From positions 2,010,768 to 2,074,767 of the forward strand of contig CAVNZM010000003.1 in NCBI GenBank assembly GCA_963693365.1: a stretch of DNA of 64,000 nt. The letters run 5' to 3'. Each line of letters starts with the position of its first letter. The stretch's first letter is position 1. A model generated the notes under the pieces. That model had not been told where the DNA came from. It was given only the letters and a program-made list of their open reading frames with translations, and made no database searches. The translations under genes and the position numbers were made by a program. Source of the stretch: Amoebidium appalachense (Eukaryota > Protista > Ichthyosporea). Shown here one piece after another: positions 2,483-63,175 of this stretch.

Positions 2483-4030
2483 GGTGACTAAATCATCGTG
2501 TAGAATTACCCGTAGATGCAGGGGATAGAGGTACTTACTCACCACTCACCCACCAATCCCCCAGGTTATCGTTGTCTCCATATCCGAACCCGATTCCGCC
2601 ATTCAAGAAATCGCCCAATCAGGCCGCATTCCCGCATGTCACGTGTCGCTGGGTACCTTTGACCGTACAGACAGTACCTTGCCCACACCTCTGCTTCAGT
2701 ATATGTCATCACACCCAGAGGTACGTTTTTACGCAATAATCATGCTTGGAGTATTTGTAGCATGTACTCAATCGGGGAATGTATGTTGCTCGATTGGAGA
2801 ACGGCAATATACTTGGCCACTCCATTTTGGCCGCATCACACCTCAGCTCATCAGACCTCCTTTTTTTTCTTTCTTTCTTTTCTACTCCCACCCCTGTACT
2901 GCCCCGATGACTTCCCCAAATCTGAAGCCCTCACCCCCCCCCCCCCCCCCCCCCCCCCCCCACACACACACACATATATATGGTTGGGGTTGGGGGGGGG
3001 GAGTGCCGGGGGGGGGGGGGGAGGGGGGCGCGGGGAGGGGGGGGGGGGGGGGAAGAGCAAAAACGAAGGTTTTGTTTAGTACATCATGATAAGAACTCAC
3101 CTTTCCCATCCTTTCAGGTCCTCGCCACAAGGCCAGGGCCTTCAAACAGGCAACGGCTCGACATACGACAGCACGATCACATTACCATATGTGGTGCAGC
3201 GTTCATTGATTGGGCACACCTCAAGGGGTGCATGGCTATAGTAGCATCCGATCTTGACTGCTGGGAGAGGGAATGTGTCGACGGTGTCTCGGCTGCGGAT
3301 TTGGTGATCCCTCAACTGGACTATAACATGTGGGTGGTGCGTATCCATTCACCTCTCTCTCTCTTCCCCCCTCCCCCCCCCTCCCCCCTCCCCTCCCCCT
3401 TTCCAACCTTCCCTCTGCCCTTCACCTCCTCCCTCCCTCCCCATTCCCCCTCCACCTGGATTACAACACGTGGGTGGTGCGTATACATAAATCTATTTTT
3501 TTCCCCTTTGCCCCCTCCCCCCCCCTTCCCCTCCTCCCTCCCCCCCAATTCACCCCTCCCCCTAAATTACAATACGTGGGTGGTGCGTATCCATAAAGCT
3601 ATTTTTTCCCCCTCCCCCCTCCCCCTGCCCCTCCCTACCCATTTCCTCTCCCCGCCCCCTCCCCTCTCCCCTTCTCCCCCCCCCCCCCCCCCCCCCTACC
3701 CCCTCCCCCCACGTATGCGTGTGTGCGTATTGCGTGGGGGTATGTGCACAAGTCTCTCTGTTTGTGTAAAAGCACGCAAAGGGAGAGATGTGGGGTGGGG
3801 AGGAGGCGGGAGGGAGGGGGGGCGCGGAGAAGTGGGTATTACTACACACACCAAGAAGACCAAAAAATGATTAGATTCCCCGTGTTTTTTTTTTACTCCT
3901 CCTCCCCCCCCCCCCCCCCCCCCCCCCCCTCCCCATTTCCCCTACACCCCCTTATTTCTTCCTTTTTCTTTCTTCCTTAATTCCTCATTCTTCTTTTTCT
4001 TCTTCTTCTTCTTCTTTTTTTTTTTTTTTT

Positions 4031-4069
<39 letters not shown>

Positions 4070-4887
4070 TATACCACATTAGGCCGTGAACCGATATCCA
4101 TTCACCAAATAACAAAAATTCCGCAGGCGGACTATGCACACTCCAAGGGAATGGCCGCGGGCCTGGACGGCAGCATGGGCCTGCTGCCACAGCTCAAAGA
4201 CAAATACGACTTCTTTCTGGTGGAGGTATGCATACCAAATAAACACACTGCACAAATGCTTTGGTAGGAGGGCGTGAGACAGAAGAAGCCGAGGAAGGAG
4301 AGAAGACACATTTCAATACATAAGTTGCAGGCGCGGTTCATTGATATTTGATTAGCCGAAGGGTTTGAGGGAGAGAAAGGGGAAGAGGGGGAGAGAATAT
4401 CATTCATAAACACGTGGCATGCATGGCTGGTTTCGATTTTATTAGTAGAAGGGGGTGCCTGTGTGTGTGAGAGAGTGCCATTTGTTTCTGATTGAAAAGG
4501 ATGCAGGGTGAAGACATGCACACATGTAAACCCCACACATGGTTGGTTGATTATTAGGAGGGCTTGAGGAAGAGAACTAGAGCCGGTGAAAGAAGATTTC
4601 TTCCTGGTGATGTGTAAGTAGGGTGAAGAAACGGTGTACACACCATGCAAGCTGTTTGGTTGGGACTTGAGTGAGTGACGTGGGTGGCGGTTCGAGGGAG
4701 AGGACACGAAGAACTAATGAAATAGGGTAAAGGGCTGGTGGGGTATAGGGATGTGGGTTGTGTGTGTGTTGGGGGGAGGGGGGGGGTACGAGAGAGAGAG
4801 AGAGAGCGTGTGTGTGTGTGTGTGACAGAGAGGGGGGGAGGGGGGAGGGGAGGGGGAGGGGGAGGGTGGATGGGTGGGTGGATGGGT

Positions 4888-11987: not shown

Positions 11988-12540
11988 GAGATTTATACAA
12001 GGACAAAAGATTTCAAATCACACCAATATACCACATAGCACACAAGAAAAGTTCATTCGAGGGTATAACATATGGGTCGGGATGTATGTAGCAACAACCA
12101 TAGACTCATCACAGAAGGCTTTTACTAGACGTCACATGAAGGCGTGCCTGAAAAGACTAGAATACTACAGCCTTAACTCAACACAATATATATTCGGAAT
12201 CGGTTATATTCAGAGGTGTCAAGAATGAGCATGTATATCATCATAGTGTGTGATTGATGTGTGTGTGTGTGTGTGTGTGTGTTGGAAAGTTGTGGGGATG
12301 GGTTTCCAGTGTACGTCACGTGTATTTGTGTGTACGTGTTTGTGTGTTTATGTGTGTCACGGTGAGTGTTTGTGCAAGGGTACGGTACAACACACATGGC
12401 CGAAAGCAGATGGCACTGATGTGTGTTCATTCTGTGCTATTTCGGCAGAACTGAAACATTGACCGTGTGATTTCCTAATAATATTGTCGCAACACGCACA
12501 CACACACACACGCACACACACACACACACACAGTCACACA

Positions 12541-12760
12541 CATCCTGTCCGGTGATCCACAGATCCTGGGTACGGATCCTGGTAACTCCACACGTGCACC
12601 ATAGTAGCCCATCCCCACCCAACTTCCCACCACACACACACACACACACACACAGACACACAACCTGTCAGGTGATCTACAGATCCTGGTCTCAGTGACG
12701 GATCCTTGTCCTTCGTGCACATCATAGTAGCCCATCCCCACCAATCTTCCCAACACAAAC
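12541..12760. repeat. Imperfect tandem duplication of about 120 bp
   Basis: cctgtc.ggtgatc.acagatcctgg...acggatcc...gtgcac...catagtagcccatccccacc occurs at about 12544-12632 and 12664-12755. Confidence 0.75.
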
Positions 12761-13880: not shown

Positions 13881-14810
13881 TCATATGGTTTTAGACACAT
13901 GACCAAAACAAAAATTGCAGGGTGGGGGTTCCACCCTAGTGGTACCGTGTGGGCATGTTTCATCCACAACGCAGGCAGGCTCGGAGAAAAAGACATGGGT
14001 ATGGTTGACTCCCCTACCTTGGGGGGAAATCACCATACGCCCATTTCCAGAAGGACACTGCACCACCTGCAAGCAATTGAAAACTGTCAGCATGTGTGTT
14101 TGTTTTGCACATTCAGTGTGTGTGTGTGTGTTGAGTGTATGTGTGTGCAGCATGTGTATGTGTGTGTGTATGTGTGTGTGACTGTGCTTGTGCGTAGTGT
14201 GCGTGTGTGCACGTGTGTGGATTGTGTGCCTGTTATTGTGTGTGTATGTGGGTGGGTTTGTGTGCGTATGTAGACGTGTGCAGACGCTTTTGCCTATAAA
14301 AGAAGTGTGCGTTATGTGCGTGCCAGCAGACAAGTGTGTGAGCAAGCTTTGCTTGCACGTGTTTATGACTTGTCAACATTCAAGTGTGTGCGTATGTGTG
14401 CGCACGTGTGTGTTTGTGTGTGTGTGTTTGTGTTTGTGGGTGTGGGTGTGCGATGTATGTCTGTGTTTTTCTTTTTGGTTTGTGGTGTTTGTGGTATTCT
14501 GTTGGTGCTTATGCTTGCCCAGGTGTACGCGTGTCATGCACGTTTGTGTATGAGTGTGCATGTGTGTGTGTATGAGTGTGCATGCGTGTGTGTATGAGTG
14601 TGGCATGTGTGTGTGTCTGTGTGTGTCACGGTGTGTGTATGTGTGTGTGTGTGTATGAACGAGTGTGTGAACGTGTGCGGATCTGGTTGCCTGCACGTGT
14701 GTGTATGTGTGCATGGTGCGCATGTGCACGTGTAAATGTTTCCCCATGTGCGCGCGTTTCAGTCATGCACGTGTGTGTATGTGTGTGCAGGCGTGTGTGT
14801 CTCTTTGTGT

Positions 14811-14860
<50 letters not shown>

Positions 14861-14962
14861 ATGTGCACGTGTGAATGTTTGCCCATGTGCGCGCATTCCA
14901 GTCATGCACGTGTGTGTATGTGTGTCCAGGCGTGTGTGTCTCTTTGTGTGTGTATGTCACTG

Positions 14963-15001
<39 letters not shown>

Positions 15002-15215
15002 TGCATGTGCACGTGTGAATGTTTGCCCATGTGCGCGCATTTCAGTCATGCATGTGTGTGTATGTGTGTCCAGGCGTGTGTGTCTCTTTGTGTGTGTATG
15101 TCACTGTGTGTGTGTGTGTGTGTGCGCGCGCGCGCGTGTGCACGTGTGTGGATCTGGGTGCCTGCACGTGTGTGTGTGTGTGCATGTGTTCATGTGTTCA
15201 TGTGTGCAAGTGCGC

Positions 15216-15271
<56 letters not shown>

Positions 15272-16038
15272 ATCTTTGTGTGTGTGTGTGTGTATGTGTG
15301 TGACTGTGTGTGTGTGTGTGCACGTGTGTGTGTGCACGAGAAAGAGAGATTGAGAGTGGGTGTGTGGGTGTGTGGGTGTATGTGTTTGTGTTTCTGCCGG
15401 TGTGTCCTTTCTTTTGTGTGTGTTTTTTGTGTGTGTTTGTGTGTGTGTGTTTGTGTTTGTGGGTTTGGGTGTGCGATGTGTGTCTGTGTTTTTCTTTTTG
15501 GTTTGTGGTGTTTGTGGTATTCTGTTGGTGCTTATGCTTGCCCATGTGTACGCGTGTCATGCACGTTTGTGTATGAGTGTGCTTGCGTGTGTGTATGAGT
15601 GTGCATGTGTGTGTGTCTGTGTGTGTCACGGTTTGTGTATGAGTGTGTGTGTGTGTGCGAACGAGCGTGTGCACGTGTGCGGATCTGGTTGCCTGCACGT
15701 GTGTGTATGTGTGCATGGTGCGCATGTGCACGTGCAAATGTTTGCCCATGTGCGCGCGTTTCAGTCATGCACGTGTGTGTATGTGTGTGAAGGCGTGTGT
15801 TTCTCTTTGTGTGTGTATGCGTGCGTATGTGTGTGTGTAGTGCATGTGCACGTGTGAATGTTTGCCCATGTGCGCGCATTTCAGTCATGCACGTGTGTGT
15901 ATGTGTGTCCAGGCGTGTGTGTCTCTTTGTGTGTGTATGTCACTGTGTGTGTGTGCGTGTGCGCGCGTGTGCACGTGTGCGGATCTTGGTGCCTGCACGT
16001 GCGTGTGTGTGTGCATGTGTTCATGTGTGCAAGTGCGT

Positions 16039-19447: not shown

Positions 19448-19849
19448 ATGACGGACGTGTGCAGCGCCACCCCGGCCACCGAAGCCCTCGGGTTTAAAAA
19501 GAATAAGGATGTCGATCTTCATGACGAAAAAGAAGTTACTCTCCCACGGGGGTCCCACGACCACCACGAGAAGAAAAAGGGGGGTCTAAGCGCGGTTTTC
19601 GGCTCTCTTTTCAAGGGGGGAAAGAAGGATGCGGACGGAAAATGCGAGAAGAAGAAGGAGAAACGTGCTGATGATTTTGACAACTGGGGGGACCTATATG
19701 ATAAGGTGAACGAGTGGAAGGAGGAAGATGAGAAGAAGCGCTTGGAAGTCAGGGAGCCGAAAACACGTTCACAGTCCGTCACCCCAGCCACCGCTTTCGA
19801 CCCTGCACTGAGGCAATCTCTGAGAAAGACGAATACTGCTTTCAACTAA
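19448..19849 (+). CDS. Small hydrophilic protein (133 aa) with one DDFDNWGDLYDKVNEWKEED motif and a C-terminal WH2/thymosin-like segment
   Basis: Non-repetitive ORF starting at ATG in caccATG context. It shares several sequence blocks with the ORF at 22266-23003 and ends in AFDPALRQSLRKTNT. Confidence 0.8.
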   Translation: MTDVCSATPATEALGFKKNKDVDLHDEKEVTLPRGSHDHHEKKKGGLSAVFGSLFKGGKKDADGKCEKKKEKRADDFDNWGDLYDKVNEWKEEDEKKRLEVREPKTRSQSVTPATAFDPALRQSLRKTNTAFN

Positions 19850-19957
19850 GGGTGTTATTTTTTTTCTCTCTTTTTCTTTATTTTTACTTTTCTATTTTTT
19901 ATTTTTCTGTGTATGTAGATAGGGGGGGGGGGGGGGAAGAATCCCAAGTTTCCCCGT

Positions 19958-21107: not shown

Positions 21108-22265
21108 ATATTCCCACCGCCACCATCACCAGTAAATACCACACCCCCACAGTACTAGTGCACAAAGGGTGGGCACGCAACACAGACTTATTTCTCATAT
21201 ATGGCAGTCTGGGCACACCTGACATGTTTCGTATACAAAGGCGTACCGTGACACTCAGTGTGAAACTCTAGTACACATAGTCGGTGGTAGCTACATGTAC
21301 AATGCAGGTGCCGGTGGAATCAATGAACTTTTTCACGATGTTCGATTACTCAAACCAAATCAACATGTTGATCGATACCGATTGCATTTGACTTGAGCAC
21401 AATACTAGAGACGGTCACAGCTGCAGCACGTCATGAGCAGAAAGGCAGTCGTAAAACATGTGAACCCCCCCCCCCCACACCCGTCCCCCTCCCACCCTCC
21501 CGGCGCGCACGCGATAATGAGTTAAAGAGTACCAAGTGCGCGTTCACCGCGGACAACACAGTGTAGAAGTTACAGGGGACACACAAAGAGCATACGTTTT
21601 GAGCCGAGCTCATCCGCAGGGGAGGAGGCCTCGGGAGAGGGGGGTGCTTCGGAATTCGCTTTTACATACCAACAATACCAATACAGGTATGATCTAGCTT
21701 TTACAACTGAACATAGATTGATTAAGCGTGCTTCAAAAACTGAACAACTCAGTACTATACTTTAAGTCAGTGTGGAAGTGCAAAGTTTACATTTTGAAGG
21801 AAAGAAAAAGCTCTGGCGACACACTTGCATCAAGTTGCCAATTTGGAGATAGAGAGGTATTGCATGCATCAAGGCGATGAAAGAGATACTTTTCTAAATG
21901 TATTGTTTACTTAATCACATGATCATCTATGGCCCGTAACTCTGCCCGTACGTGTGTGTCTGTTGTGTGCTTGTGTGTGTGTGTGTGTGCGTGTGTGTAA
22001 GCTGCTAAATTTAAAAGAACGTGCACTCCGGCACTAATTGATTAGTCTGTGTGCAAGCATCTCCGTCTTGGCATCAGCTGTGTTTTTACAAAGAAGGGGG
22101 GGGGGGAAGAGCTTGAAAGCAGGACAAACACAGTGGAGGGCTGCTCGTTTCCTTTCAGCCAAACAACCAGCAAGAAAAACTTGATACATATCACAAAAAG
22201 GCGACTCATCAAAACCCCCCCAAAGAACATCGTGAAACAATCCCATGTTCTCATAACATCATTCC

Positions 22266-23003
22266 TCACGAACGCATTTTCCTTGCAGCAATAGCAGCAT
22301 TCCTCTTCCCAACGTCCTCCTCCTTCCACTGCTCGACCTTATCCAACAGGTTACCCCAGTCATCAAACGAGTCATCCCTAACATTCTCCCCCGTGATCTT
22401 CCTTTTCACCTCCTTTTCCACCGATTTCTCCGGAACTACCCCCCCACCAAAGAGCGAAGGGAAAGCGCTCGCACGCCTGGGCTTAGGCTCTTGAACCTCT
22501 TTCACCTCGGGGACCCCACTAGCTCTACTTGCCTTTGCCTCTTCATGGCTCTTCGTCCCCTGTTTCTTCAGTTTTCCTTCAGGGGCCGGGCCCTCGTCCC
22601 CTTCCTTCCATTCCTGAACCTTGTCATAAAGCTCCCCCCAATCGTCAAAGTCATCACCGTCTTTCACCCTGGAACCCTTTCGTGAACTGGGCTTCGAACT
22701 GCTTTTCTCCGCCCCATCTTTTTCATCGGGGTGACCTTCCTCCTCTCCAATCTTCCCGTGTGCGCTCTGCGTCGCCGAATCCTTACGCTTCTTCTTCAAC
22801 CCAAACACATCCTTCATGCTGTCCACAATCTCATTAAAGTTTAACGCTGAGGTGCGGCGGGACCCTGGCTTTGTGTCAGGAAGGAAATTCTCCCCTGTCT
22901 CCGGGTTGGAATGCTCAGGAGGGTCTGCGGCATCTCCGGTGTTCAGGCTTTTCTGTTTCTGATAGGTGACAGGGTCGGAGGGGTGGGTGGCTGTACTTGC
23001 CAT
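22266..23003 (-). CDS. Hydrophilic, probably disordered protein (245 aa) with two D-x-F-D-D-W-G-x-L-x-D-K-V-x-x-W-K-E motifs; paralogue of 19448-19849
   Basis: Clean 245-codon ORF containing DDFDDWGELYDKVQEWKEGD and DSFDDWGNLLDKVEQWKEED, plus RRTS/RKDS/RKGS/RRAS sites. Confidence 0.85.
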   Translation of the reverse strand: MASTATHPSDPVTYQKQKSLNTGDAADPPEHSNPETGENFLPDTKPGSRRTSALNFNEIVDSMKDVFGLKKKRKDSATQSAHGKIGEEEGHPDEKDGAEKSSSKPSSRKGSRVKDGDDFDDWGELYDKVQEWKEGDEGPAPEGKLKKQGTKSHEEAKASRASGVPEVKEVQEPKPRRASAFPSLFGGGVVPEKSVEKEVKRKITGENVRDDSFDDWGNLLDKVEQWKEEDVGKRNAAIAARKMRS

Positions 23004-46664: not shown

Positions 46665-49600
46665 ATGCCCGTGCGGAGAGCAACCACATTCATGGTACGT
46701 GGTCAGTATAAACATGGTTTAAATTTTAGTTATATTTTATCTTTTATATTTTATTTCTTTTTTTTGGGGGGGGGGGGGGGGGGGGGCAGAGGGGGTTCAG
46801 TATAAACGTCAGGGTCTTTGGGTCGTTTTTTTACATTGTCATATGTGTTTTTTTTTTGTTTTTTTTTGGGGGGGGGAGGGGGGGGGGGGGGGGGGGGTAA
46901 AAGGAAAATGGTTCTCCGAGGGGACTTCTTTCCCATTTCAATCTTACAGACAGCAAACCTTCGTGGGGAGAGGCACTACGTTTATGAACATCACAGTTTT
47001 CTTGGGGAGTTTTTTTTTTTGGAATGGGCATGGAGAATTTGGGATCCGTCTTTCAGGTGTAGGGATATTGAGAGGTTTTTTTGGTTTGCTGCGGGTTCTT
47101 TTTGTTGGGGGAGAGGGGGAAAGGCGCGGCAGCGACGGGGGGCGGGGGGGGGGGGGGGGGGGAGAGGGGAGGGAAGGGGGGAGACTAAGAGGAGGGGGTT
47201 GATAGGGGTTTTGGAGTGGGAGTGCTTGTTCCCACACGGACAGGCTGTAAAGCATACTTGCACCTATAAGCGGTTGTATATACAAAGACACTCATGTACA
47301 CGGGTACGTGTTGATGCTCGTGCACATGCAAACACATAGGTGGTACTTGCTGGAAACAAACTGGGAAAGAAGCTTGGTGGTTTGGTAGGGTTTATCACAT
47401 ACGTATACGCGCATGCACTCTCGCACACACGCAGGCACGCACGCACGTACGCACGCACACACACACACACACACAGACACACACACGCTCACACACGAAA
47501 ACACCAGCACGTACACACACATACGCACCCACACACTCAGCAACACTCAGGGTTTGCGTACACAAACATATGCACGCTCACATGCCTCATATATAGTGAC
47601 ACAACAACATTCACACCGACACATCCTCACCACGCAACATTCCTCCCCCCCCCCCCCCCCCCCACCCCCCCCCCCCCCCCCCCCACCCCCCCCCCTCTCT
47701 CTTTCCCCCCCCCCCCCCCCCCCCCCCCCCCCACTTTTCCAACAAACCAACCAATCACACCCCGACTTACACAGGGACCGATCCGCAACCCCGACCAATG
47801 GGGCAAGCTCTTTATGACATTCTTCTCTGCCGAGGCCATTGCCGTGGTTGGGCTCTGTGCCTATCGCCTGTACAAGTCTATCCCCATCACGGATGCGACA
47901 AGGAGTGACTTTGTCTACACCGTGTGTTTGCTTCTTAACATACGTGTGTAGTCCTGTACCCCCCTCCCCCCCCAAGCCCGCCCTCCCCCCTCCCCCCTCC
48001 TTCTCAACGTACGTGTGTGGTCTTGAAAACCCCCCTTCCCCTCCCCCTCCCCCCCCCTCCCCTTGATTATTTTCCGAACTCTTAATATACTTTGGACCTT
48101 GCATGGTGAATTACGTCATGAATGTGTGCTTCATACCAGATAATACATTTTTCTTCCCTCTCCCCCCCCCCTCCCCCTCTCCCTCTCCTCCCCATATGCA
48201 TACATCCCCCCCCCCCCCCCCCCCCCCCCTACCCAAGGCTATCATATTCCCCCGGGACTCTGTTCAGGTGTCTTCTGCCCGCACCCTTCTCATTTTTGTG
48301 ACGTTTTTGCTTTTGCTCTTTGTTGTCTCCTCCATATTTCCAAACCCCTAACGCATACATGACGCCCACCCCTCCCCATCTTCCTCAGCCTCTCCCCCCC
48401 CCACCCCCCCTTTTTTCTTCTACTGCCCGCACACACACACCTTCCACTATCCGTACTGACCACTGTTTGCAGCGTTCTGCCTATACTACTGCATCCACGG
48501 CACCCTTCGAGAGAGACACGTGGAGCTGTATGCATTTGTCTGCGCCACCCTCCTAGTCACCGCATATGTCTTTTACCAGGTACATTTACTATTCCCCCCC
48601 TCCCCCCCCCCTCTCCCTCCCCCCCCCTCTCTCATTCCGCTCACACCCATACACCACAACACCCGGCGTTCTTCGACAGCCGGGCATGCACATGCACGGA
48701 CGCACACACATAGGCACGTACACGCCCATCAGTGACCCAAGCTCGCCCACCAACACCCACATACATACCCCCCTCCCCCCCCCATTTCCCCCGTCCCCTC
48801 GCTCAGCCTCCACCTCTCACACCTTATCCCTTTGTCCTCTCCCCGGTCCTGTGAGGATGGGCTCCATGTGCACCTATGATGCATTCTCGTTGTGTTTGCC
48901 TATTTGTTTCGTGCACATGTATGCATTTGTGCTGTCCGATGCATGAATGTTTTTTTTTTATTTTTTTAAAAAAAATATTAACAGTCCAACCCTCCTCACT
49001 GTTCACCTCCCCCCCCCCCCCCCCCCCCCCCCACCTCCCTCCCTCCCGCCTCCGTCCCCATTCCTTCCTTCCCCATCCCCCTGCCACTCCCATTCGTCCC
49101 CCGTCCTCCCCATCCCCCACATTCCCAGCACTTCCCTCCCCCCCCCCCTCTTCTCCCCCTCCCCTCCCCTCTCCCCCCCCCCCCCCTCCCCCTCCCCTCG
49201 CCCCTCCCCTCCCCCCCCCCCTTTCCCCCCCTCCCCCTGCCTCCCTCTCCTCCCCTCCCCTCCCATCCCCCTCCTTCCCCTCCTCCCACCCCCCTCTCCC
49301 CATCCCCCCCTCCTACCCCCCTCTCCCCCCTTTCCCGCTCTTCAGTACTTCACAGAGCAACATGAAGGCATGAGTGACCCCACGAGTCGCAGCCACCTCG
49401 TACGTCTAGCGGTGGTGTGTGTGTGTGAGCCCGTGAACCTGGTCTTGGCCCTGGCAGTGGCTAACAGGTTTGGTTGGGTCAGCTTCATGACTGTCGGGGG
49501 TGACTCGGTGCTTGCCGGTACATGTGTTTTCTCTCTCTCTCTCTCAATCTCCCTCCCTCCCTCTCAACCTCCCTCCGTCCCTCCATCCCGCCCTCCCTCC

Positions 49601-51462: not shown

Positions 51463-51904
51463 GGAGGAGTCGGGGGGGGGGGGGGAGGGGGGAGATGGCG
51501 AGGGCTGGGTGGGTGGAGGGGGGAGGGGGGGGGGGGGGGGGGGGGGGATTTCCACAGGAATCATTACCAGTACGTCTACGTGCACGATTCACACCACTCA
51601 CTATAATTTTGTGTTATTGTGCAGGGTCAAACGTTCCCCTTTGAGTGGGTGGTCGAGACGTGTGTTCTATTCTTCCTCCTGCTGAGCTTCGGCCTGGCAA
51701 GCTATGTGGTGAGTAACCCCCCCCCCCTCCCCCCCCCCCCCCCCCCCCCCATGTGTCCTGGCAGTGTTTCTTGTTGTGTAGTTAGTTGTACTTCGTACCG
51801 TGCTCGTTTCTAATTTCCCCCTCCCCCCAATTCATTTTCGTAACGTTTTGTTGTTGCCCTCTGATGTCCCCTCCATATTTCCAACCCTAACGCATACAAC
51901 AACA

Positions 51905-51974
<70 letters not shown>

Positions 51975-56095: not shown

Positions 56096-56822
56096 ATGGG
56101 GATAAACGACAAAGAAAACAGGGCACCCGTCATGGGCACGCCCCAGCGAAAGACCCCAGTTTCCGCTAGCGGGCTGGTCTGCACAACACCCAGGGGTACT
56201 CCCATCAGGCCTAAAACAACACCACGGAGCATATCAAAGAATAGCCACCAGGTTAGTGTTTCCGCTCGTTTTTTTCGTTTCCAGAAAGGGGGAAGGATAA
56301 AGAATGGGCAGAAAAGAAAGGAGGAAAGGGTGGAATGAAGATTAACAAGTTGCTGTTGTCTCGAATTATTGGTGTTATAAGTGGGGCAAGAGCTTTATGC
56401 TTCTGCGTCAGACAAAGCTTTTTTTTAATAGCTAAGCCTAGCCTCTGTGTGACGGGCAAGACATGTCAGAGCAACGATGTAGCTCCTTATTATGTATCGT
56501 CTCCAAACCCAGGCTTTGCACTTCAATTCCGCTAACACATAAACACTATGCCTTCGATGCATCTGCACTAGACAACCTGGATTCGCCCATTGTTTCTTCT
56601 GTATGGTGCAAGCACGAACCAAAGCCCGGTGGGTTTTTCTTGTCCTGTGTTACTTAGGTCTCTACGAGAACCCGGATCCCCAACACACTGGTTCAGACGG
56701 TATAGGCGAAGCTGCATGGTTGCAGCACACAACTACACCCTTTCTCATCACTTGCCGCCAACGAAACTCTAACGCCCTCCCCCACCACCACACGCACACA
56801 CACACACATACACGCGCGCGCG

Positions 56823-56854
<32 letters not shown>

Positions 56855-57113
56855 CACACACCACCCTGCAGGTGCTAGAGTGGGAACGAGAGCTGGAACA
56901 ATACCAGCAGAAGATTGCTGAGCTCAAAGCAAAGATTGAAGGCAGCACCCACGAGGTCTTGAAAGATCTGAATGTGAACGTGGAAGATGAGCACGCAGGC
57001 AGAGAGATCATCAAGGACCTCATGTTGGTCGACAAGGTGTGTGCGTGTGTTTGTGTGGGTGGGTGGGTGGGTGGGTGTGGGTGGGTGGTGATGTGTGTGT
57101 TTGGGTGGGTGTA

Positions 57114-57156
<43 letters not shown>

Positions 57157-57501
57157 ATGTGTGGGTGAATGGATGGTATGGTGGTGGTGGTGGTGGTTGG
57201 GGGGGAGGGAGGGGGGGGGGGGCTTGTCACTTGCAAGAGCGTTTCTGTCCGTGCACTTGTTTGTGTGCGTGTATGTGTCTGTTTGTTGATTTTTTTTTTT
57301 TCGGGGAGGTGGGGGCTGGGGGGACTGTTCGTTCCCATCTGAAAGAGTATGTCTCCCTCCCCCCCCCCCCCCCTCCGGCCCCAGATCCCCTCCCTGCACA
57401 CACGGGGGGACTGTTCGTTCCCATCTGAAAGAGTATGTCTCCCCCTCCCCCCCCCCCCCCCCTCCGGCCCCAGATCCCCTCCCTGCACACACCTTCATTC
57501 T

Positions 57502-57575
<74 letters not shown>

Positions 57576-58100
57576 GTCTAGGGGCATCGACCCATAAAAT
57601 GGTGCGCTACCCTACTAACATCCCGACACACGCGCACACACACACACACACACAGATGCACAACCTGTCACTCATGGAGGAGGATGAGGTAGAGGTGCCC
57701 TCCGTGCAGACCGTCTACTATGACCACAACGAAGCAAACTACTCCACCATAGAGAGGGTGGGCAAGGGGTACGTGTGTGTGCGCGCGCCCTCTTTGCATC
57801 TGAATACCAGGCACAAGCACGTACACATTCATCCATCACACACGTGTGTGCATGCAAGCGTGGCATGCCCATCCATGTACACCAGTGAGAGGGTGGGCCG
57901 TGGGGTACGTACGTGTGTGTGCTCCCGGTTCATCTGAATCTCATGCACACACACATGCGCGCGCGCACGAGCGCGTGCGAATGTACACAATGCTTAAATT
58001 CGGTGCATGCATACATCATTCATTACACACTATACAAAGACTCGCACACGCCACGGGGGCATGCCACACGAACGTGCATAATCATCAAATACATGCATGC

Positions 58101-58131
<31 letters not shown>

Positions 58132-59576
58132 GAAAAATCGCACGCACACACACGTACACGTCCACGTCCACGCACACGTACACACACACGCAGGTCGTTT
58201 GGTGTGTGCCACCTAGTGGAGCACAAGCGCACGGGCCAGCGTCTGTGCCGCAAGACCATCAACCTGTGCCAGAAGGACATGGATATGACGGATGCACGGG
58301 GGGAGTGCACATTCCTTAACCGTATTGTCAACACACACTGTTTGAAGCTGTTTGATCTGCACATCAACCCAAATATGGAGGTAAGGAGTGCGTACGTGCA
58401 TGCACATTTGCGATGTGATGGTGCATACATGTACGCATTTGCACGTATATACACATACGTGAACACATGCACGTGGCCGTGTACATATGCGAGGGGGCAG
58501 TGCACATTCCTCAGTCGCATAGTCAACACACACTGCTTGAAGCTGTTTGACCTGCACATCAACCCAAATAAGGAGGTGAGGGGATGTGATGCGTGTTTGC
58601 ACGTGAACATTCACACATACACAAATTTGTATATATACACTACATGCATACGTAAACACGGGCCCATGCACATGCAAGGGGTGAGTGCACATTCCTCAAT
58701 CGCATAGTCAACACACACTGTTTGAAGCTGTTTGACCTGCACATCAACCCAAATATGGAAGAAAAAATGGATGCTTGCATGCACATAAACAAGTGCACAT
58801 TTGCATGCGAACATGTACGTTGTCATGGATCGCTTATGCACATTTGCACGCATACATACGCGCCCGTGCGCCTTCCCTTCCCCCACACACACGCATACGC
58901 ACACACTGTTTGAAGCTGTTTGACCTGCACATCAACCCAAATATGGAGGTTGGGGTTGTGATCCTGTGACACGTGCATGCACGTGCACGCACACGTTCAC
59001 ATGCATGCACATATGCACGCGCACACGCCGCTGCACGCAAGCACACAAAGAGAGACATAGATGTGCGCACACATATGCCGATACACGGACATGCACATGT
59101 GTGCACAGGGATGAGTGAGTGCTGGCGTATAAAAAAATCTACACATATACATACATAGGATAACAGGGTACGCGCCAATGCACACACAGAGAGCACATGT
59201 GCACTCACACAAAACAAGAGTTCACGAAACAACCAAGGTCGGTTCTATTGTTCAGGCATAAACACTTACCCTCTTTCATACCGACACGTTTATATTGGTA
59301 CCCTCTTTCCCTGAAATCTATACACGTTTATATTGATACATCGATTGTTGGGTATTGTTCATACATTCACTGAACCCCCCCCCCCCCCCCCCTCCATCCG
59401 TGGTTCAGGCATGGGGACGCGTTTTCGAGTTCTCTTTATATCAATAGCCATGTGTGTTTCTGTGAAAGGAACTGGGTTGTTGGTTGATCGTGTTTCATAG
59501 GTCCCCCTTTCCCCCCCCTCCACACACACCCTCACACACATACACATACATACTCGCGCACACATACACACACACA

Positions 59577-59608
<32 letters not shown>

Positions 59609-59740
59609 TACATCTACATCCACATCCACACCCGGGCGCTAACCCTTCCTCCCTCCTGCACACACACTCACACATACATACGCTGACTCGCACTTTCGCA
59701 AGTATGCACACACCAAGTCACGCAGATACAATTACTTATA

Positions 59741-59829
<89 letters not shown>

Positions 59830-61372
59830 CTGTTCATCTACATGGAGTACTGCCCGTGGTCTCTTGAGTCCCTGAGGCTTGTGCGCGGTGCCAAGGTATG
59901 GCTCTGTGTGTGTATAGTGTCTTTGTGTATGTTTCGGCTTGCAGGTGGTGATGGATTGTGTATGTGTGTGTGGGGGGGGGGGGGGGGGGGATGGTTGTAA
60001 GTGCATGGCTGAATGAAGATTTTTGAAATGTGAATACGTGATCTATTTTTTTAGGCCAGATGTGTTTCATAACGGACGCAACCCCCCCCCCCCCCCCCCC
60101 CCCCCCCAACCCCCCCCAACCCCAACCCCAAACACACATCCTAGCATTCACGCACACGCGCGCGCACACACACACACACTAATGAGAGATGGAGAAATTA
60201 AAGCACGGATCTACTTACACAGCCACAACACACGCAAGTGTGCGCAGTTAGTTGGATCATATGCGCCAACCCCAATCAGTTCTCCCTTCATTCTCTTTAA
60301 TTTTTTTTAAAAATAACAATAACAATAAAAATAAAAAACTTTGTTATACTTGAAATTTTTAGTCTTTTGGGGGGTGGGGGACTGTTGTCGTTCTCATCAC
60401 CATTATCACTTAGGGCCATTTTTGCAGCTATGAATAGAGCTGTATGTCTATTTATAGGGTTGCAGGGCAAACAGTGACCTACTTTTAGCTGCCCCCACAG
60501 GGGGCCGTGAGGGACCGGCTGGACGTGTCTACGGTGCTACATGCGGCATACCAGACACTCAAGGGTCTGGACTATCTGGCCGTACGTGCTCACATGCTCT
60601 CTCTGTCTCTCTCTCCCTCCCTCCCTCCCTTCTTGTCGCTCTCTCTCTCTCTTTCACTCCCTCTCCCTCTCACCACTCAAGCACTCAATCCGATGAGTCG
60701 CTCACATAACGACATTCATACAAGTACGTACACACACACACAAGTCCATACATCCATACATACACATAGGGACAGAGGAGGAGGAGGGGAGATGAAGGGA
60801 GGGAGGGGAAAGCAAACCAGAGTTGGTGGGTGGGGGGGGGGGGGGGGGGGGGGGGGGAAGCACATGCCTGAATGAGCATGTAGATATGTTGCACCTAAGT
60901 ACATGCATGCGCACGTCCATAAGCAAACACATGCAAGTCGCTGGGCTTGAAGCTCCCACACACACACACGCACGCACGCGCGCGCGCATACACACAACCT
61001 TTCTTTTTTTTTTTTTTTTTTATGCAAGTGAACACTCGGGCTTGTCTTCGTTCCCCTCAACACACCATACTGCTTTTTTTAGTTAGTTTAAACGTTTGTC
61101 GCCGTGCCCTCACCATAGTGTCAAAGCTTTTTATGCCACGTAAACAATAGCACAGCCGGGCACACACACCCTTACATCCAAATTCCCCTCTTCCTCTCGG
61201 CCCCCCCCCTCCCCCCTCTGCGCATGCGCGCACACACACACACACACAGAACTTTGGGCGCTACACGCCTGGGGAGACGGATAAGACGCTCCGCATCGTG
61301 CACACAGACATAAAGAGCGACAATCTGCTCATCAGCTTTGACGGTATTTGCCCCCCCCCCCCCCCCCCCCCC

Positions 61373-61442
<70 letters not shown>

Positions 61443-61672
61443 CCCCTATACATACACATATACACACACATCCATACACATACCTACACAATCCATGAGT
61501 TTCTGGTGGCAGCCGATAACACAGCGATTAAATAGGAAAGGGGGGAGGCGCGGGGGGGGGGGGGGGGGGGGGGGATCAATATAAATGAGACCAGGGGCTA
61601 AAAAAAACAAGGGCAGCGGCGATACAATCAAAATAATCTGTTTGGGCCATAGGGGGGTGCGTGGGATGAATG

Positions 61673-61717
<45 letters not shown>

Positions 61718-62564
61718 TTTTCAACCTTTCTTCTTTTTCTTCGCCACTGAAACTCACGTCATCATGCCTCCCTCCTCTCCCCCCCCCCACACACAAACAC
61801 ACACCAAAAACAAAATTGAGGGTGTGCCCTTGCCCAAATCACAACTTCAATGCACACGGGGACACGCACTCTTGTATATATATCCCCTCACCTGCGCCCA
61901 CCCCAATCCCCCCCCCAAGCAACAGCAGCCCCAAAACCCACCCATATTCCCACACGAACACACGCGCGCGCATGCGTACACACACACTTACTCTTCAACC
62001 CTCCCCCCCCCCCCCCTCTCACGTGCACACGTACACACGCACACACACGCAGGGACGGTGAAGATAGCAGACTTTGGGATCAGTGTACTCCTCAAGGGGG
62101 ATGAAAAAATCACAGATGAGATCGAGAGGGGCAGTGAGGCATACATGGCTCCAGAAGTCAAAAAGTCCCTGCCCTACTGGGAACCCGTACGTGAAAATAT
62201 GCTTCCCCCCTCCCTCCCCCCCCCCCCCCCCACGCACACACACCGTCACCTTGTCTCTCTCTGTCTTTCATCCGTATGTTATAATATTCCCCTCCCCCCA
62301 TCCACCCACCCACCCTCTCTTTCTCGTCCTCTTCGTGTGTCCCTCTGTCCCACTTTCCCACTCCTCCAACCCCCCTCTGCCCTCCCCCCCCCCCCCCCCC
62401 CCCTCTCTCTCTCTCTCTCATACACTCCTTCTCGATTTCTCTCTTCTTCACTCCCTCCTCCACACACACACACTCTTGCTCTCTTGCTCTCTTCTGTCCA
62501 CTGTCCAAGCCCCATAACCCCCCCCCCCCCCAACCCAACCCAACCCCACCTATCCACCGCTCTA

Positions 62565-62635
<71 letters not shown>

Positions 62636-63017
62636 CTCCCTCTCTCTCGATCTATGTGTATGGGTGGGTCAGACTATATCTGTGCCATCTTCTGCTTGTT
62701 GGTGGGTTGATAGCTTGATCGGTAGGTGTGGGCGTAGGTAGATAGCCCCCCCTCCCCCCCCCCCCCACCCCCTCCCCCCCCCCCCCCCCCCCCCCCACCA
62801 CCACCACCACGACGACGACCAAAAAAAAGGGGGTGGAGGGGGGGGGGGGGGGGGGGATAAAGAAAAGAAAGATAAAATGGTTGAACAAAAAAAGGAAATT
62901 GCATGACCTGGATAGGTCTGTACTCTCTGCTCCTTCTTTTTTTTCTTCTTTTTTTTCTTTTTCCCCCTCCCCCTCAATGTTGTGGGTCGAGGAAAAGCCT
63001 GTATGCAAGGTCTCACA

Positions 63018-63071
<54 letters not shown>

Positions 63072-63175
63072 CGGACATGTACTCCTTGGGTGCGTCCATC
63101 TACGAGATGATCACCGGCCATCTGCCCACTGGCCGTGCAAAACCTACTTTCTGGGGTGTGCACTCCCCCTTCCCG

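Follow-up and report, generated by a model that had tools for sequence, protein, structure and literature searches.

Silent-biased copies of an exon end in an intron of an Amoebidium kinase gene, with a diverged working allele as their possible source

The 3′ end of exon 4 of a serine/threonine protein-kinase gene in Amoebidium is followed, in the next intron, by three head-to-tail copies of itself (spacings 195, 185 and 188 nt). Repeats of an exon-intron junction are a known and harmless structure, and the unusual part here is that dead copies resemble working alleles, with silent and intron sites about 30% diverged and the amino acids almost untouched. The reading we prefer, at a probability of about 0.5, is that the copies would descend from the working exon as carried on a diverged haplotype.

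The window (the whole stretch of DNA analysed, 64,000 nucleotides) is eukaryotic in character and rich in introns, as ichthyosporean genomes are described to be in the available part of PMC5560861. The nine-exon model of the kinase gene (Table 1) has a stop-free translation and matches a transcript-derived protein of 591 residues (P0002; Pkinase E 9.6e-37), an Amoebidium parasiticum entry in EukProt. The nearest other protein was the Creolimax orthologue, with 46% identity overall and 73% identity in exon 4.

Table 1. Positions in the window of the kinase gene, its working exons and the duplicated exon ends
Feature	Position	Strand	Remarks
Ser/Thr protein-kinase gene, exons 1-9	56096..63155	+	gene continues beyond window end
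Kinase exons 1-3	56096-56251, 56872-57036, 57656-57768	+	first three of nine
Older echo of exon 3 end and intron start	57881..57949	+	two changed codons, both non-synonymous
Kinase exons 4-6	58194-58380, 59830-59895, 60489-60581	+	
Working exon 4	58194..58380	+	donor GTAAGG at 58381; duplicated part 58292-58380
Intron piece of unit 0	58381..58486	+	purine-pyrimidine-alternating sequence
Copy 1 of exon end	58487..58575	+	78/89 identical; donor GTGAGG at 58576
Intron piece of unit 1	58576..58671	+	
Copy 2 of exon end	58672..58760	+	81/89 identical; without GT donor
Intron piece of unit 2	58761..58899	+	homology to other pieces marginal; contigs in two spliced runs
Copy 3 (49 nt)	58900..58948	+	48/49 identical; donor GTTGGG at 58949
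Exon 5	59830..59895	+	acceptor partner of donor 58381 (spliced contigs and P0002)
Kinase exons 7-9	61250-61343, 62053-62186, 63071-63155	+	

Copy 1 carries seven synonymous and three non-synonymous codon changes (E>Q, N>S, M>K), copy 2 carries eight synonymous and no non-synonymous changes, and the single difference of copy 3 is synonymous. The counts for copies 1 and 2 reproduce those of an earlier sequence-only reading of this DNA, and the elements it listed were all present as well, namely the donors at 58576 (GTGAGG) and 58949, a CAG at 58498-58500 and the 75-nt cassette in copy 1. A GT donor is retained in two of the three copies (58576 and 58949) and is absent from copy 2; AGGT occurs in the duplicated stretch only at 58379, 58574 and 58947, i.e., at the donors themselves. 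The left ends of the copies fall on short stretches that exon and low-complexity intron have in common (ATGC at 58292, CACACAC at 58332), that of copy 3 lying at the CA-run microhomology. Unlike the intron pieces, the last 18 codons are nearly identical in each of the four units. The intron pieces of units 0 and 1 are identical in 68 of 94 aligned columns (72%), a score reached by none of 317 similar segments of the window, and the scores of the unit 2 piece were reached by 9 and 26 of the 317 null segments. Homology among the remaining intron pieces was marginal, with 7 to 26 of the 317 null segments scoring as high. The pieces after copies 1, 2 and 3 have a mutual identity of 68-73% and are as divergent from each other as from the original.

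The copies are real tandem duplications. Overlapping contigs spanned every junction of the array in DNA runs X1, X5 and X7, one of which may be the source of the assembly, and a further run (X6) covered 58194-58751. Depth over the array was that of single-copy sequence in X1 (36-45) and X7 (19-24) and uneven in X5 (61-194), and a 40-mer common to copies 2 and 3 had about double depth (90.5 in X1, 52 in X7). Relative to the window, X7 has 10 substitutions and a single insertion of 2 nt; two of these changes fall in copies and none in exons, and X7 is an independent genotype, about 0.6% diverged, with the same four units; both genotypes observed (n = 2) have four. The differences inside the copies are E>V at 58574 (copy 1) and M>I at 58945 (copy 3). 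The X7 differences amount to 2 in ~227 bases of copies, 8 in ~1102 bases of the rest of the intron sequence and 0 in ~290 bases of exon (lengths being estimates based on the contig table), so that, on two sites only, the copies now vary between strains like intron. Haplotypes merged into an array during assembly would also show silent-only differences, but such an artefact is extremely improbable given the junctions in contigs of three DNA runs, the single-copy depth where depth was even, the lack of a second allele in the data and a different strain with the same four units plus variants of its own. The sequence-only reading had itself named merged haplotypes as the outcome that would overturn it, and depth together with the X7 genotype exclude this in practice.

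The strength of the silent bias depends on the null. A naive calculation for eight silent changes out of eight gives a P of about 1e-5, with a null that is unsuitable here. The earlier premise, that a bias of this kind is not to be expected of intronic copies under neutrality, uses an unsuitable null too: the working exon gives only silent changes, and therefore the silent share expected for a dead copy beside a selected exon rises to 35-48%, not about 25%, with a corrected P of 2e-4 to 3e-3. Differences common to several copies must moreover be counted once; the 15 silent changes of copies 1 and 2 exist, but they are not independent, as six are common to both. The private changes (four silent, three replacement) are allowed by neutrality (P = 0.04-0.15), and the six shared differences among 13 events gave P = 0.0008-0.0045 in an analytic calculation using a clock with a selected exon. 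All six lie at or before 58356, and four of them are in consecutive codons (P = 0.016). Methylation-driven mutation was rejected as their cause since CpG deamination accounts for 0 of the 6 sites; the available part of PMC11244446 describes Amoebidium gene bodies as methylated at CGC/GCG.

Exon and copies diverge at 8 of about 22-25 silent sites, in line with the divergence of the intron part of the same unit (26/94, corrected 0.35), an intron clock based on low-complexity sequence that may evolve fast. Amino-acid changes numbered three in copy 1 and zero in copy 2, against ~11 each expected under neutral decay (P = 0.005 and 2e-5, respectively). The bias is real and beyond chance, but it is smaller than it appears, and amounts to a modest statistical anomaly at a locus selected post hoc among very many windows.

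At present the copies appear to be dead and are likely decaying, because copy 1 has lost a conserved glutamate, copy 2 has lost its donor and both strain differences are non-synonymous. The residue changed by E>Q in copy 1 is Glu in all seven aligned homologues and in 13 of the 15 BLAST hits covering the site (own protein included), and its position fits that of the conserved helix-C Glu of kinases. Protein-level selection on the copies, one of the options of the sequence-only reading, is not supported for the present day in view of the same three observations, although the strain differences are small in number (2/2). The proposal of alternative splicing fared no better. Contigs from runs X13, X9 and X10 (two studies), which were taken as cDNA solely because each has a spliced contig, join 58380 directly to exon 5 (3/3 runs); the contigs of these three runs contained no splice junction using a copy, and P0002 also skips the copies. 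Contigs drop rare forms, which leaves room for minor use of the copies despite the agreement of the three runs, and the absent cover over copy 1 in the spliced runs carries no evidential weight by itself.

Tandemly duplicated mutually exclusive exons keep the amino-acid sequence of neighbouring copies while their introns diverge. Copies that had once served, where they now lie, as translated parts of alternative or mutually exclusive exons, and that died recently, would accordingly explain the kept amino acids beside the diverged intron pieces, and there are segments that could have served: an in-frame 75-nt block in copy 1 flanked by CAG and GT, and an in-frame 33-nt exon (58916-58948) in copy 3. 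The Amoebidium copies are, however, half-exons that have no proper acceptor, of which one has no donor, and that are unused in spliced contigs. AG|GT is absent inside the duplicated stretch, and none of 35 stop-free donor-acceptor combinations restored the normal length. Of the 20 nt upstream of the AG at 58500, 9 are G, compared to 0-3 for the 8 true acceptors, exon similarity continues upstream of this AG at 11-12 of 14 nt, and the CAG of this putative acceptor itself destroys the nearly invariant Glu. The stop-free extension of 65 codons through copy 1 noted earlier is present, but it is weak evidence, since 610 of 2000 sequences made by dinucleotide shuffling of the intron piece were open as well. 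A former life as exons in place is, on this evidence, quite improbable.

Conservation at the RNA level, for example of a poison cassette that shifts the frame and runs up to the donor of copy 3, with the exon drifting silently in the meantime, draws on the one place in the spliced runs where clean intronic contigs were found, 58728-58948. X9 has a contig there (58730-58947) at a depth of 32.7 compared to 85.4 for its mRNA contig, and X13 has one (58748-58908) at a depth of 4.3 compared to 402; cassettes running from 58708 or 58728 to 58948 would shift the frame and contain stops. In length the X9 contig equals exactly one period (188 nt) with 30 identical bases at its ends added, and could be a frameshifting cassette to the donor of copy 3, a fragment of the intron or amplified duplicates. 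A back-spliced circle was rejected by sequence reasoning, as a junction formed by donor 58949 would deviate from the genome at 58760, and the contig shows no change there. No junction into or out of the stretch was seen in the contigs, X10 had no contig over 58728-58948, and the copies differ between strains at the rate of the remaining intron sequence (two sites only). Nor did 58730-58947 have an unusual fold (z -0.54), and its 14 weak matches in Rfam were all far below threshold. We give RNA-level conservation even less credit than former exons.

An old array that was kept young by conversion from the neighbouring exon, with a chance run of silent changes on the exon lineage or a faster silent rate in exons producing the bias, would involve no foreign allele and require neither sex nor gene flow. 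It agrees with the near-identity of the last 18 codons in four units beside dissimilar intron pieces, and also with the remaining echoes of the window, which fit the corrected null, this locus having been singled out afterwards. The analytic P for the shared differences (given above) speaks against it, as do simulations of conversion among four units with a selected exon, in which exon and intron mutation rates were set equal: among 15,600 runs (26 settings), a copy with at least eight silent and no replacement changes arose once and the two-copy pattern never. We consider local conversion unlikely, if less so than the explanations by exon use or RNA. A paralogous gene, since lost or unassembled, would leave the same divergence profile as an allele, and one X5 contig matches from 58308 on with a foreign left flank. 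This flank was not seen in X6 (which shares its sample with X5), in X1 or in X7, a second locus with this exon was not found at 80% likeness in X1, X6 or X7, and the protein searches returned the protein itself, the Creolimax orthologue and distant kinases with no close paralogue; a paralogue is accordingly a doubtful source, on a par with former exon use.

Beyond an array that is real, a first donor that is used and copies that carry damaging changes, what remains is that the ancestor of the copies, after its separation from the present exon, would have functioned as an exon during most of the time elapsed. Silent divergence matches intron divergence with the amino acids almost untouched, which is the profile of two working alleles, and among the possibilities raised by the sequence-only reading a diverged working allele or paralogue as the source fits best, although no such allele was seen. 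Copy-type codons were not seen in any working allele, and X7 has the present exon. Since this sole other genotype is only ~0.6% diverged and has the same exon, the source would have to be a more distant lineage. X16 was discarded as an outgroup, having the same exon sequence at a depth of 3.5, and two scans for relatives in metagenomes gave 0 confirmed of 247 and of 209 pattern matches. It also counts against the capture of an allele that meiosis in ichthyosporeans remains unclear, according to the available part of a review (PMC11286789).

Descent from a diverged allele could have proceeded as follows. Slippage or unequal exchange at the short exon-intron matches (58292, 58332) would duplicate the exon end with its donor, which would be harmless because the upstream donor wins. 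Only the exon-derived tracts would then be alike enough to pair, and these may have stayed close to, or been overwritten by, the working exon, the intron pieces meanwhile drifting to about 72%. The source exon would have been unlike the present exon at about 6 of 22-25 silent sites, either with the copies captured from the allele of another lineage or with the present exon a later arrival from one. In its simplest version this would take an old array tracking the working allele and recombination with a haplotype ~0.3 substitutions per neutral site away. As the six shared differences are all at or before 58356, one crossover between 58357 and 58486 would suffice to account for them. The intron pieces are mutually as divergent as they are from the original, and one capture would therefore be insufficient, requiring conversion plus a swap, or several captures.

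Repeats of exon-intron junctions are described, in the available part of PMC1557585, for human F7 intron 7 (37 bp), LMNB2 (100 bp) and PDGF intron 4 (81 bp), as well as for CBS intron 13 and the interferon-inducible 6-16 gene. As in the F7 and LMNB2 type described there, the first unit spans the exon end and the donor, later units form intronic pseudo-donors, and splicing (mainly) uses the donor that lies furthest upstream. The Amoebidium array differs in its unit of 185-195 nt, with up to 89 nt coding, and the F7 pseudo-sites, going by the same excerpt, are identical in sequence whereas the Amoebidium copies are not. Unlike near-identical minisatellite monomers, the units here combine intron parts of ~72% identity (68-73%) with coding parts of 88-98% identity and a silent bias. 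Intron gain through tandem duplication, so far as the accessible text of PMC2891723 describes it, is similar in that a short coding-exon duplication occurs and one copy becomes intronic; unlike gain via a duplicated proto-splice site, an existing intron grows here and there is no AG|GT inside the coding stretch. Conversion between duplicates, pseudogene templates included, needs high similarity and stops upon divergence (available part of PMC3924837). Such a requirement fits young exon tracts beside old intron tracts, but typical tracts are given there as a few hundred nucleotides, longer than the 49-89 nt here, and local conversion alone, as simulated, did not give the silent excess. Our literature search, which reached a minor part of the subscription literature, returned nothing on copies of exon ends with a silent bias, nor any paper dealing with recombination in Amoebidium.

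Exon-end echoes are common in the window, and a strong silent bias occurs at one locus only. Downstream copies of the last 24 exon bases were clear at 3 of 35 donors (3336, 57768, 58380) and borderline at one (4225); the donors were annotated by hand, with transcript support for the kinase exons only. Upstream copies were found at none of 36 acceptors (Fisher P compared to donors 0.11 or 0.05). Echoes at ~1 in 10 donors and no acceptor of this window suggest a simple route of intron growth. The earlier tally of four introns in three genes was roughly right (exon ends 3336, 47943, 57768 and 58380), but only 58380 shows the strong bias. The exon end at 3316-3336 with its donor has two intron copies, at 3456 and 3562, whose shared differences are two silent and one replacement; the gene, with repeated domains, is presumably glycoside hydrolase family 114-like by motif, and a Pfam scan of this single exon gave no match. 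The borderline echo (4202-4222 and about 4589-4609) is identical at 17 of 21 positions and is not followed by a GT donor. A further echo in a likely membrane protein gene (47928-47958 and 47997-48027), detected only when the intron start was included, has one silent and one conservative change. Pooled without the borderline case, the other echoes have five synonymous and five non-synonymous codon changes, which fits the corrected null and shows no silent excess, and the idea that introns throughout the genome store spare variants of exons finds no support in this window.

Should the copies stem from a diverged haplotype, the kinase array would be a footprint of past recombination in animal relatives whose meiosis is unresolved (PMC11286789, in the part available). 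Extending this, exon-end echoes in Amoebidium might record, like fossils, past recombination between lineages whose neutral sites are ~30% diverged, with crossovers in the exon-derived tracts, a generalization that we offer only tentatively and rate as rather unlikely. Were it true, introns would keep snapshots of foreign working alleles, only exon sequence still pairing, and a single genome could suffice, through its echoes, for dating and mapping cryptic sex or hybridisation in Ichthyosporea.

Short duplications that are wholly intronic are also present in the window. Kinase intron 2 contains a recent 86-bp tandem duplication, 95% identical (57314-57492), and an intronic array at 14498-16005 consists of a 44-bp unit repeated five times, a second unit repeated four times and a larger duplication at about 1-kb spacing. 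Two introns of one gene, 3.5 kb apart, share an 88-bp stretch at 80% identity (48290-48377 and 51832-51918). A 120-bp tandem duplication at 12533-12749, in the last intron of a short gene (16582-12125), has a donor-like end on the minus strand, and was rejected as an exon echo on the basis of the gene model, which closes without it. Finally, two convergent lysine/glutamate-rich frames at 19470-19850 (+) and 22250-23000 (-) are possibly inverted paralogues, and share 53 nt at 77% identity (19676-19728 and 22367-22315).
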